From a virus (taxonomy: Duplodnaviria; Caudoviricetes): DNA of 43,821 bases. The notes under the pieces were generated by a model, which worked only from the letters and a program-made list of their open reading frames with translations, was not told the origin of the DNA and did not search any database. Below, in pieces: positions 11,796 through 18,529 of the stretch; position 1 is the stretch's first letter; every line of letters starts with the position of its first letter. The translations under genes and the position numbers were made by a program. The stretch spans positions 1 to 43,821 of the IMG/VR virus record IMGVR_UViG_3300030376_002994; one strand, written 5' to 3'.

Positions 11796-12030
11796 TATCT
11801 CTCTCCAATCGTTGCAAATATCGTCTCATTGCTGATTCAGATATGACAATACCATAGTTTTCTTCAAGTAATCTTGATACAACATATGGTCTCATCTTAA
11901 CTTTTTCTTTTACTACCCTGTCTTTTAAAGCAATCCAAAAAGGTTCTGCGTCTGGCGTAATTTTGCCTTCAACATAATTACCTTTTTTTCCGTTATGTGC
12001 TTCATCAAGCATGTCATTTATATTTACCAT
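11788..12030 (-). CDS. small HTH-like protein, leaderless; start moved to MVNINDML
   Basis: VVSRLLEENYGIVISESAMRRYL; the longer ORF-track start runs through the RNA gene. Confidence 0.7.
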   Translation of the reverse strand: MVNINDMLDEAHNGKKGNYVEGKITPDAEPFWIALKDRVVKEKVKMRPYVVSRLLEENYGIVISESAMRRYLQRLERDNA

Positions 12031-12037
12031 ACAGATA

Positions 12038-12065
12038 AGTATAGTAGATTTGAGATGTATGTAAA
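12038..12065 (-). promoter_or_regulatory. sigma70-type promoter
   Basis: TTTACA-16 nt-TATACT, 7 nt before the ATG at 12030. Confidence 0.65.
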
Positions 12066-12081: not shown

Positions 12082-12159
12082 TGGTGGAGGTGGCCGGAAT
12101 CGAACCGGCGTTGGCATAAACAACGGGCAGCTGTTATATGCTCTAACCTGGACACCCCC
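12082..12159 (-). ncRNA. mini-tmRNA-like RNA: tRNA-like domain only, Ala acceptor identity, no D-stem, no mRNA-like domain
   Basis: GGGGGTG/CACCTCC acceptor with G3:U70, discriminator A, encoded CCA; T-arm GCCGG-TTCGATT-CCGGC; 11-nt stemless D-loop TCCAGGTTAGA; single 10-11 bp hairpin in place of the tmRNA body. Confidence 0.85.
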
Positions 12160-12166
12160 AACAGAT

Positions 12167-12228
12167 GGAATACCGTGCTTAAGGTCGGAAAGGAGTACAA
12201 CCCACTGTTGCCAGTTGCACGGTACTCC
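12167..12228 (-). ncRNA. three-way-junction small RNA with GCAA tetraloop and anti-SD loop
   Basis: P1 GGAGTACCGTGC/GCACGGTATTCC; P2 ACTG-GCAA-CAGT; P3 GGTTG-TACTCCTTTC-CGACC; G:U pairs favour the minus strand. Confidence 0.7.
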
Positions 12229-12243
12229 TAATATTATCCTTCC

Positions 12244-13755
12244 TTATACTAGCTGATTTAATTGTAAAGCAAAGTGTTTTACTTCATCTATATCTGCTAG
12301 TCTCGTTATTCCTGAACGCTTGCATATTTCTATACAATCTTTTAATAAGTTAGTTGAGTTCTCATTATGTAATCCAAATACATACATATCACTCACCCAT
12401 ATTCTTTTTTGTGGTTGTTTAGATAGCCATTGCAAAGCAGGGCCATCAACTAAGTTACCACCGCCAGTCCATCTATCTAAATAGTCTTGACTAACTCTCT
12501 TACCATTGCGTCCTATAATTCTTAACGCACCTGATTCCCATGTTCCACCTCTATCGTTATACATAGCTATAGTAACTGCAGGAAGCAGTTGCATTATTTC
12601 TAGTATATCTTCGCCACTAAAGGACATAGAACCTGACGCATCTATTAGTATCGTTCCACCATATACTCTTTGTTTTTGTTTGAATACTTTTTTATCCACA
12701 CACCAACGATTCATATACTTTGGATTTACACCGTAATCCATAGGTCTATATTCTCTACCACCTTTAATCTTCGATTGTAAATTAACACTAAGATGTGGTT
12801 TAAATATATCCATTTTACCCCATTTACCCATATTATTTGGGTCTGGTACATAGTGCATATTCCCACCATCGTTAGCTTTCGAAAATATATCTTCTTTGTT
12901 ACGGTTATTTAATTCATCAAGAGTCATTTCATCAAATTCACCTTCTTGTGGTGACTTAGCTTCCATAGTTTTCTTATTAGCAGATAAAGCTTTTTCTTTA
13001 GCTTCTTTAGCTTTGCGTGCTGACTCTAATACCTGATGTTCTTCAGGTTTTTCATTAAATTCGTCCATTAATTTATTTAAAATTAATGCAGCCTTTCTAG
13101 TTTTGGTATACTTACTAGTTTTTCTACCATATCCTCTCGTATAACTAATTATTCTATACAAATTTAATGCTTGACTATATGCAAAATTCATTTGCTGTAG
13201 TCTAAGCTTAGTCATTTGATTTGGATGGTTTGGAAAGTCCTCTTGCATAGACAAGAGTTCTTTCATCGATTGTAAAATTGCTGCATCTTCTAAGCTATCA
13301 TTTTTGGCATAATAATATCTGTTACTATTACTTGGTTTCATATTCATTAGCATCCAAGCAGTCATTTCAAATACTGAACCGTTATAAAAAACACTTTCTG
13401 TATGTTCTAAAAACTTAGAAGGACATATTGTCCAATCATCAATCACTACATCCATAACAGATAAGTTATAATTAACACGAACTTCTTCGCATATTTCTAC
13501 ACATTTTTCTGATTCGTTTTCTTTTAACTTACCTATAGTTTTAGGACTCCACTTAGCATGGCCAAGTTCATGTCTTCTAATCATTTTGTTATGGTCACTA
13601 CCACACAATATACATATCTCATCACTTGTAGGTACATACATTTCGTGTGATAGGTTAGATGTTCTAGGTTGAGTTGTATCTTCAAATATTTTCCAAGGTC
13701 CCTCTCCAGATGCTATTTCTGGAAAGGGTATCTTGTTACTCTTCTTCTTGTACAT
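12244..13755 (-). CDS. CobT-like VWA protein with N-terminal HExxH metallopeptidase-like domain
   Basis: RRHELGHAKWS...EEVRVN; MIDAS motif ILIDASGSMS; VSD. Confidence 0.85.
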   Translation of the reverse strand: MYKKKSNKIPFPEIASGEGPWKIFEDTTQPRTSNLSHEMYVPTSDEICILCGSDHNKMIRRHELGHAKWSPKTIGKLKENESEKCVEICEEVRVNYNLSVMDVVIDDWTICPSKFLEHTESVFYNGSVFEMTAWMLMNMKPSNSNRYYYAKNDSLEDAAILQSMKELLSMQEDFPNHPNQMTKLRLQQMNFAYSQALNLYRIISYTRGYGRKTSKYTKTRKAALILNKLMDEFNEKPEEHQVLESARKAKEAKEKALSANKKTMEAKSPQEGEFDEMTLDELNNRNKEDIFSKANDGGNMHYVPDPNNMGKWGKMDIFKPHLSVNLQSKIKGGREYRPMDYGVNPKYMNRWCVDKKVFKQKQRVYGGTILIDASGSMSFSGEDILEIMQLLPAVTIAMYNDRGGTWESGALRIIGRNGKRVSQDYLDRWTGGGNLVDGPALQWLSKQPQKRIWVSDMYVFGLHNENSTNLLKDCIEICKRSGITRLADIDEVKHFALQLNQLV

Positions 13756-14509
13756 TTTTCAAACTAGTATCGTTAACATTCACATCAGATAATTTGATAG
13801 CGTCCAAAAGTTCACTACCTCTTTCACCGAATATCAATTCAGCTGCCATTTTCATGCCAACACCTTTTTGTTGTAACTCAAAGTATTCTCTCCAAGCTCT
13901 AACAGATATTCTTTCTTCCATATCTTCTGATAATGATGTATCACTTATTACTTGATGCCAAGTTTTAGGAAACATACTTAATGCCATAGGATGTATGGTA
14001 TCAACATGTATCTTCACTGGGAACCTATCTTTAAGTGCCATTGGTAGGCTCTCTGGTAGGCTGTTAGTAGTAGCAATAACATTAAAACCTTTCTTAGGTC
14101 TTACTGTTTCTTTGTCGTCATTATTTAATGTCAACTGTGCTATATCTTTGTCATCAAGTATAGCATGCAAGAATGTCATAGCATCAGGACTAGCGTGGTC
14201 AATCTCATTGACTACTAGTCTTCCACCTTTTCTCCATGCTTGTATAGCAATACCGTCATGCCATTCAAATCCACCATCTGAGTTAGGCTTATAAAAGCCT
14301 TCAAGGTTTGCACTAGCAGTGTCCTCTGTCATGGTTATTTGATATACATTAGGTTCGCCTTGTAGGTTTAATCCTACTTTATTGGTTGCAGCAGCATATG
14401 TTTTACCAGTTCCTGGTGGCCCATATAGTAATATTCTATCGCTATTACCAATTGCTGTCTTTACTTTGTCCCAACAAGTTACTACTTTCGTAGCTGTATC
14501 TTCACTCAT
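13736..14509 (-). CDS. MoxR/CobS-type AAA+ ATPase (AAA_5)
   Basis: Walker A GPPGTGKT, Walker B variant LVVNEID, IATTN, ALKDRF; start moved to MSEDTATK (RBS GGGAG). Confidence 0.92.
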   Translation of the reverse strand: MSEDTATKVVTCWDKVKTAIGNSDRILLYGPPGTGKTYAAATNKVGLNLQGEPNVYQITMTEDTASANLEGFYKPNSDGGFEWHDGIAIQAWRKGGRLVVNEIDHASPDAMTFLHAILDDKDIAQLTLNNDDKETVRPKKGFNVIATTNSLPESLPMALKDRFPVKIHVDTIHPMALSMFPKTWHQVISDTSLSEDMEERISVRAWREYFELQQKGVGMKMAAELIFGERGSELLDAIKLSDVNVNDTSLKNVQEEE

Positions 14510-14520
14510 TGTTCTCCCTT

Positions 14521-14838
14521 CTAGAATGTGTTGTTCACATCCTGTAGCTTTACAAAACGACAATATATTTCTACAATGCCGTCTTCATTTTTCCTTTGTT
14601 TGACTTCAAACATACCTTTATCTTTAAGATGTCTGATATTAGTTTGAGTCATATTTTCTATATTTTGTTTAACACCTGATATCCAATTAGTAGATTCAGC
14701 TATCATATACCATTCATTAGGTGTAGATAGTAATGTTTCTACTTTATCATCTGTTAAAATTGTAGGTGTTTTACCTTTCCTACTATGATTAGAAGCCGGT
14801 GGCGTTTTTCGTACTAATTTGTTACTCTGTATCGCCAT
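14521..14838 (-). CDS. hypothetical protein
   Basis: ORF in operon, overlapping upstream gene. Confidence 0.7.
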   Translation of the reverse strand: MAIQSNKLVRKTPPASNHSRKGKTPTILTDDKVETLLSTPNEWYMIAESTNWISGVKQNIENMTQTNIRHLKDKGMFEVKQRKNEDGIVEIYCRFVKLQDVNNTF

Positions 14839-18074: not shown

Positions 18075-18482
18075 CTATTCAGTGTAGCCCCATAGTTCCT
18101 TAGTCATAGCAGGTGCCTTATAGATACCTTTTATGACAAGCTGGGTGCCTCGATTTATCCATTCACCGTCATCACCTTTGTATGACTGTTCCTGAGCAAC
18201 TGCCTCAATAAGTACAGGTTCCGTTTTAGGACGCCCATTCTCACCAACAGGTGCGTTAGCGATAAGTTGTTGCAGTTGAGTTGCAGTAGCATTATCAGCA
18301 TTATTAAATGCCTTAGCGATACTACGATTGTTCTTACCTACAAACTTAACACCAAAGAAAACGCCGTTTCCCATAGTGCCCGGTTGTGTAGGGTCTTTAG
18401 TTATTGTTGTAAAGAAGCCGACTTCCCTTAGTATCCCAAGGTTAACCATTGCTCCCTCATATTCCTTTAATAAACTCATCAT
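18075..18482 (-). CDS. SSB-like OB-fold protein lacking an acidic tail
   Basis: ITKDP...AKAFNNA...PVLIEAVAQEQSYKGDDGEW...QLVI resembles the SSB pattern; strong RBS GGAAAGGAG. Confidence 0.6.
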   Translation of the reverse strand: MMSLLKEYEGAMVNLGILREVGFFTTITKDPTQPGTMGNGVFFGVKFVGKNNRSIAKAFNNADNATATQLQQLIANAPVGENGRPKTEPVLIEAVAQEQSYKGDDGEWINRGTQLVIKGIYKAPAMTKELWGYTE

Positions 18483-18529
18483 ACTCCTTTCCTTTAAGTT
18501 ATATTAATTGATTAGTTTAATATAATGAG

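Follow-up and report, generated by a model that had tools for sequence, protein, structure and literature searches.

The DNA at positions 12167-12228 on the minus strand of the window (the whole stretch analysed here, a 43.8-kb phage record, 97% complete by CheckV and 34% GC) encodes a three-way-junction RNA that belongs to a real, well-covarying and uncatalogued RNA family of marine phages. The fold sits after the stop codon of a vWA gene in more than 100 related marine phage loci, and one of its hairpin loops copies the 16S rRNA 3' tail, GGAUCACCUCCUUUCU, of the likely host. With a probability that we put at roughly 0.55, the junction RNA masks GAAAGG-type ribosome binding sites (RBSs) of early phage messages, lowering their translation; both the pairing and the repression are proposed because known RNAs with anti-Shine-Dalgarno (anti-SD) loops act in this way.

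A covarying three-way junction behind the vWA gene

The RNA is closed by P1, a helix of 12 bp (12217-12228 with 12167-12178), and contains P2, a 4-bp hairpin reading ACUG-GCAA-CAGU with a GCAA tetraloop (12204-12215), and P3, a 6-bp hairpin (12182-12203) with the loop UACUCCUUUC (12188-12197); J3/1 is UAA, and all parts lie on the minus strand. This is the architecture drawn in the earlier note from the sequence, and it stands: the element folds at -28.2 kcal/mol (z -4.54), and none of 200 shuffled sequences was equally good. Within the P3 loop, CCUUUC (12188-12193) forms an invariant core with the same sequence as the 16S tail in the likely host family. When single sequences are folded without constraints, the loop is open in 41 and paired in 45 of the 86 distinct elements, which were located by the hexamer CCUUUC. 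The AGGAGUAC/GUACUCCU pairing, previously suggested to hide the loop, forms when a partial transcript of 54 nt is folded (-16.5) and is lost once the element is complete.

Conservation was assessed along several routes. All 26 vWA-fetched loci with flanking sequence carry the fold after the stop codon, and a pattern scan found 33 stretches, 32 of them in related phages (the other, in L041, is an unrelated match). In an alignment of 21 sequences, 94.8% of cells are paired and both partners vary in 18 of 22 pairs (0 of 500 shuffles), versus 36-43% paired in control alignments slid out of register; RNAalifold recovers the identical helices of the junction, and the many G:U pairs indicate that the RNA is read from the minus strand. 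A covariance model gave 60 matches in 100 sources, with none in those of their loci whose exonuclease is 56-64% identical, and 63 matches in 100 further sources fetched mostly via the ATPase. For 35 other, divergent sequences 96.2% of cells are paired and 19 of 22 pairs are two-sided, in an alignment that was fitted to the covariance model and hence leans towards structure; aligning 62 divergent members by sequence alone brought back P2 and no other helix, owing to misregister. The loop gives a count free of any RNA filter: CCUUUC lies 15-75 nt past the vWA stop in 87 of 87 loci fetched by their ATPase protein and having 80 nt of flank, where the background in distant loci is about 0.035 per 115 nt. 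The base before the hexamer is U in 79 of the 86 distinct elements and the next one out is U in 48, C in 33 and A in 5, while the P2 tetraloop is GCAA in 72 of 86. The earlier proposal of a structured RNA displaying an anti-SD sequence in a loop is thus borne out among homologues.

Other identities for this stretch fared poorly. Rfam returned no match over 12167-12228 at E <= 10. A 13-codon GTG frame lies within the RNA (12220-12179, minus strand), and the earlier note had weighed whether this overlapping frame was the conserved item; its start is at the same offset in 11 of the 86 distinct elements and it is open through the loop in only 12, so a small-protein gene is rejected. A host small RNA is rejected as well: across 65 host-family genomes the sole match of the covariance model is a phage contig of one metagenome-assembled genome (MAG), the model is absent from the 64 others, and 400 kb of host DNA gave no match. 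Literature searches found no description of this RNA family; it may be among the unnamed candidates of PMC10690425, and its supplementary files 3-6 held no match to motif or contig terms.

Host, genomic setting and transcription

Two related phage contigs are binned in the MAG 'Actinomycetota bacterium RS345', and the GTDB family of that MAG has genomes of 0.6-1.1 Mb (as available) with ~33% GC, similar in size and GC to those known for Ca. Actinomarinales (PMC7771536). Because of this binning and the fitting genome traits, the host is likely an Actinomarina-like marine bacterium. In the likely host family, all 22 16S ends that were read have GGAUCACCUCCUUUCU at the 3' end, and the tmRNA acceptor stem is the same as in the mini-tmRNA described below. 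A 4-nt SD word precedes 108 of the 396 called host genes and GAAAGG precedes 4; the latter four (L375, L377, L382 and L390, in G022) are presumably DnaK-like, a solute-binding lipoprotein, MraZ and SAH hydrolase, going by their N-terminal sequences. As a separate observation, GATC-containing hexamers are absent (O/E 0) from the pooled late coding regions of 29 phage genomes, unlike host DNA, which points to strong restriction-site avoidance.

The element is placed at the end of the early block, after an ATPase-vWA gene pair on the same strand: a MoxR-like AAA ATPase gene (13736-14509, Pfam AAA_5, likely start 14509), preceded by the RBS GAAGGGAG (14514-14521) that matches the loop over 8 bp with one G:U, and the gene of a vWA protein with a MIDAS motif (12244-13755), whose stop codon the RNA follows in related loci. 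Downstream, a promoter-like TTTACA-16-TATACT (12038-12065, minus strand) stands 7 nt before an ATG at 12030, and the gene starting there looks leaderless and separately transcribed; because it has its own promoter-like site and no SD, a role of the RNA as its leader is unlikely.

The RNA itself probably arises as a 3' tail on the ATPase-vWA message, by separate transcription from the -10 box located at the vWA stop, or in both ways. The candidate box, TAGTAT (12246-12251, minus strand), overlaps the vWA stop and agrees at 4 of 6 positions in the window, with a predicted transcription start near 12239; at the same place most relatives have TATAGT, TACAAT or TATAAT. A -10-like box at 5/6 or better occurs in 67 of 86 versus 113 of 429 control windows and is retained when the vWA stop codon shifts, although its end falls 4-8 nt ahead of the folded P1 in only 32 of 75 and the box in the window is weak. 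Contigs from two RNA runs of one study, in which DNA is possibly present, cover a relative's element, stop at 12161 and extend into the vWA coding tail; such contigs carry no strand, end or level, and they are not counted as evidence here. The shares of matching words in RNA runs were small. In one of these runs, again with DNA possibly present, contig depth was 15.6 versus 3 for a nearby piece.

A spacer of 7 nt (AUCUGUU, 12160-12166) separates the junction from a TLD-only mini-tmRNA at 12082-12159 on the same strand, and is 7-10 nt long in the subclade with the mini-tmRNA. This neighbour has the makings of a TLD-only tmRNA (a tmRNA-type acceptor stem with G3:U70, a T arm, CCA and no tag frame) and matches the Rfam tmRNA model at 45.4 bits (E 6.5e-17), below the gathering score of 47 bits; 76-nt host loci reach 40 bits on the same model, and ARAGORN made no tmRNA call at 12082-12159. 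The earlier note's placement of an anti-SD RNA 7 nt upstream of the mini-tmRNA is correct for this genome but not for the family, since the two adjoin in 4 of the 86 distinct elements. The mini-tmRNA is an optional neighbour outside the conserved unit, and a fixed two-RNA cassette is rejected, a different RNA standing in that place in 62 of 86. RNase P release, which had been suggested for both RNAs, is a plausible prediction for the mini-tmRNA-bearing subclade only.

Several further observations concern this flank. The mini-tmRNA is mobile among family members, being adjacent, ~3.2 kb upstream (in one lineage) or degenerate (window 12082-12159, L021:6366 and L144 ~760-840); its middle hairpin covaries, and several copies have no encoded CCA. 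The RNA that takes its place behind the junction in 62 of the 86 distinct elements is a second conserved structured RNA of ~90-115 nt (L206:10200-10320, and L220, L250, L266, L273, L283, L288, L294, L331 and L070), with a closing stem, GAAUAGAG, a hairpin with a GAGAA-type loop and GUGAACA, for which Rfam gave no match. One or the other of these RNAs lies directly behind the junction in 66 of 86. In several lineages (L025:9500-10000, L039, L051, L125 and L129), the interval from the junction to the next gene holds further non-coding stretches of 200-500 nt that are GC-rich and apparently structured.

Candidate targets and competing explanations

The earlier note gave the RNA one target, the RBS of the first early gene, there called SSB, where GGAAAGGAGTA (18482-18492, minus strand) is an 11-nt complement of the loop plus one stem base. 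The complement is real, and no further exact copy occurs in the window. With up to one mismatch there are 3 matches (one being the element itself) against 0.75 expected, as in 4 of 100 shuffles, and the match is only mildly unusual, both sides being SD-like by nature. The label is weaker: the protein has no Pfam or PHROG match, and SSBs are the best Foldseek rows for its single-sequence model (pLDDT 53.4) at E of at least 0.03 and TM ~0.2, weak structural hints that leave the SSB identity putative. Of 16 near-complete relatives, 2 have the gene. Its RBS reads GGAAAGGAGU, AAGGAAGGAGU, AAAGAGAGGAGU or AUAGGAAGGAGU while the loop and element are identical, so that four RBS forms face one unchanged loop and the covariation sought between them failed to appear. 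A fixed cassette, from which RNase P would free the mini-tmRNA and an SSB-specific antisense RNA together, would account for the exact match over 11 nt that this genome shares with one near-identical relative, for the tie of this RBS for best loop duplex in the window and for the 7-10 nt spacing to the TLD within the subclade. Given a gene found in so few relatives, an RBS that drifts under a constant loop and a TLD adjacent in 4 of 86, we find this model barely credible, and as a family-wide function it is refuted. The data favour instead the caveat attached to it, that anti-SD loops match many RBSs generically.

RBS usage differs strongly by genome region. Using a simple gene caller on 17 near-complete genomes and scoring GAAAGG 3-12 nt before each candidate start, we found it at 54 of the 198 early starts, 16 of the 169 middle ones and 1 of the 399 late ones, versus 4 of 396 in 400 kb of one host-family genome, where early, middle and late are positional labels and genes across genomes are not independent. 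Counted by protein family, with single-member families left out, the figures are 14/28, 5/13 and 1/42. Late genes do carry SDs (GGAGG in 53 of 399), and among SD-led genes GAAAGG is found in 51 of 125 early, 16 of 64 middle and 1 of 203 late. GAAAGG is also depleted in late coding sequence (O/E 0.33), which did not separate from control phages (O/E 0.54 in the controls vs 0.38 in that comparison, p 0.33). The controls, 11 related phages without the fold, avoid GAAAGG at late starts too (1/144 in the controls vs 0/378). They are not clean either way, because most of them (9 of 11) are predicted to form other folds on the early strand that display CCUUU or CCUCCU loops.

The loop itself has a conserved pyrimidine seed in a hairpin, complementary to the SD, as in the known anti-SD mode. 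Of 45 starts in the window, those giving the 9 strongest loop-RBS duplexes all belong to the early/middle strand, with the SSB-like RBS tied for first and the ATPase RBS fourth. Across the family, the AAA ATPase RBS is the most consistently kept candidate target: it has GAAAGG in 41 of 70 distinct loop/RBS pairs versus 1 of 70 for vWA, and a run of at least 7 pairs in 58 of 70, with several lineage-specific 10-bp matches at positions that depart from 16S. A lineage's own loop fits this RBS 0.4-0.5 kcal/mol better than permuted loops do; the median p is ~0.01 at 51 or 36 lineages and 0.11 at 14. The remaining early RBSs show no such gain (p 0.14-0.20), and loops that depart from 16S outside the hexamer fit the ATPase RBS at -9.19 versus -8.66 for the 16S 10-mer (39 pairs). 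The ATPase RBS is best among the early RBSs in 11 of 52 genomes, where chance gives 9.7. These comparisons suggest a weak covariation of the loop with the AAA ATPase RBS. Taken over all early sites, fine covariation is weak as well: GAAAGGAG makes up 38 of 99 sites in genomes with C in the loop versus 20 of 201 in those with U, and none of 17 sites facing UCCC-loop variants had the matching GAAAGGGA.

In the mechanism that we favour, the junction would hold the 16S-tail copy CCUUUC single-stranded in a hairpin loop, free to base-pair with GAAAGG-type RBSs of early phage messages and most consistently with that of the AAA ATPase gene, two genes upstream of the RNA. The duplex would keep the 30S subunit from binding and thereby lower early protein synthesis, while late genes, which use the other anti-SD half (GGAGG/U) or coupling, would escape. 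Against masking, the invariant seed is only 6 nt, and since the loop has the sequence of the 16S tail, ribosome binding by itself would already lead one to expect RBS matches. The same identity would suit a decoy that draws off a protein acting on the 3' tail of 16S, either one that binds it (a protein of the ribosome or of its assembly) or a toxin that cleaves the anti-SD, such as MazF-mt3, with the RBS partition an unrelated trait of early genes. A decoy would fit the invariant core, the GNRA hairpin that precedes it as h45 does in 16S (GCAA in 72 of 86), the other RNA mimics next door and the presence of the partition in phages without the fold. Yet the loop positions beyond the hexamer depart from 16S in most members, the departing loops fit the AAA RBS slightly better (by the energies above), and the variants UCCCUUUC and UACCUUUC have no UCCUU, all of which make a decoy unlikely in our judgement.

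We are similarly doubtful that the element serves as a stability or processing structure, or a switch, at the 3' end of the ATPase-vWA message, its loop pairing with its own purine-rich 5' flank, as in the alternative helix of the earlier note, and perhaps thereby controlling release of the second RNA behind. Distant relatives carry terminator hairpins at this site, 45 of 86 elements pair their loop when folded freely and another RNA follows directly in 66 of 86, but the loop-flank duplex ranges from -15.4 to -0.9 kcal/mol with no fixed register and is near-absent in several lineages, and the invariance of CCUUUC would be left unexplained. Pairing might also activate, delivering or stabilising early messages in a host with few SD genes (108 of 396 with a 4-nt SD word, 4 with GAAAGG); GAAAGG is a signature of the phage early genes. 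This is quite improbable, as SD pairing competes with 16S, the RNA is encoded downstream of the genes to be helped and known loop anti-SD RNAs repress (icaR, PMC3868564).

Masking could also be taken further, to a switch in which the 16S-tail mimic silences all GAAAGG-led messages at the early-to-late transition and GGAGGU-led late genes escape, which we consider somewhat unlikely. Were it true, the targets would be the phage's early genes together with a small number of host genes that are strongly led, e.g. the DnaK-like one, and it would offer a testable answer to the purpose of actinophage start-associated sequences. To our knowledge, few regulatory RNAs of phage lytic development have been characterised, and this one is a compact, uncatalogued family in phages likely infecting Actinomarina-like marine bacteria. 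The masking prediction involves a 6-nt loop and one RBS class and is open to ordinary reporter assays; if true, it would add a layer of temporal control encoded in SD choice.

Relation to distant phages and known RNAs

Distant relatives without the fold have CCUUU- or CCUCCUU-loop hairpins, some of them just after vWA, and in one distant clade CCUUUC follows vWA in only 4 of 15 distinct sequences. Six loci of the distant clade (L081:661, L085:1085, L086:1078, L087:1480, L094:1129 and L098:1847, plus strand) have a long CCUCCUU-loop hairpin that begins ~7 nt past a box reading TATACT or TATAAT. It lies antisense to the last part of a gene on the late strand; its G:U pairs favour this orientation, and many early-strand genes of the clade are led by AGGAGG. 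Elsewhere (G090:3947, minus strand; G091:12729 and G092:11436, plus strand), a different multi-stem fold with a CCUUUCU loop lies downstream of a Rad52-like gene, and vWA is followed instead by a junction with GCAA-loop hairpins and a terminator. Past the vWA terminator of L081-L131, repeated ATGCATATGCAT palindromes, possibly an operator or origin, precede a leaderless HTH-like gene of the distant clade.

Among phage RNAs, P4 CI is a C4-like antisense RNA. C4 of phages P1 and P7 has a specific loop a' and an RBS-directed loop b', and its own 5' end is the site of RNase P cleavage (PMC5320573). Like C4, the junction RNA is a small three-stem phage RNA with loop(s) predicted to cover an RBS; here a single loop is conserved, and a GCAA tetraloop (72 of 86) replaces the specificity loop. 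With no match of the element to the Rfam covariance model of C4 and no covariation with SSB, membership of the C4/CI type is rejected. The mini-tmRNA has its own counterpart in mycobacteriophage DS6A, which encodes a TLD-only tmRNA, and a similar molecule inhibits tmRNA, perhaps through SmpB titration (PMC4131195, PMC11915505). The neighbour at 12082-12159 is of the same kind, a tRNA-like domain without a tag frame, and the likeness covers this optional passenger and not the junction RNA.

The C-rich loops of RNAIII, RsaE and RoxS bind several mRNAs. Likewise, the 6C small RNA of Actinobacteria acts on several mRNAs through a pyrimidine loop seed without a chaperone (PMC6486639). All share with the junction RNA a pyrimidine seed displayed in a loop, but ours is phage-encoded, its seed is a U-rich hexamer equal to the 16S tail and not a C run, and Rfam gave no match of it to the 6C, RNAIII, RsaE or RoxS families. 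The nearest genomic arrangement is that of the start-associated sequences of cluster K mycobacteriophages, a 13-bp GGGATAGGAGCCC that departs from 16S, for which the authors allowed for binding by an RNA or a protein (PMC3203893). Both have an extended RBS word common to a subset of genes and a single copy on the complementary strand; the cluster K account, in the part used here, describes no structured RNA, whereas here the word is 6-7 nt, fully 16S-compatible and joined to a covarying RNA scaffold. A further parallel is the icaR mRNA of Staphylococcus aureus, in which a UCCCCUG motif of the 3'UTR has been shown by experiment to pair with the SD in the 5'UTR and block initiation (PMC3868564). 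In both, a pyrimidine-rich, SD-complementary motif lies downstream of a stop codon, but icaR is a single chromosomal gene, while the phage element is a predicted three-way junction after a two-gene module, with a possible promoter of its own and many candidate RBSs. The loop anti-SD mode of action is thus already known, and it is the phage RNA family that is uncatalogued.
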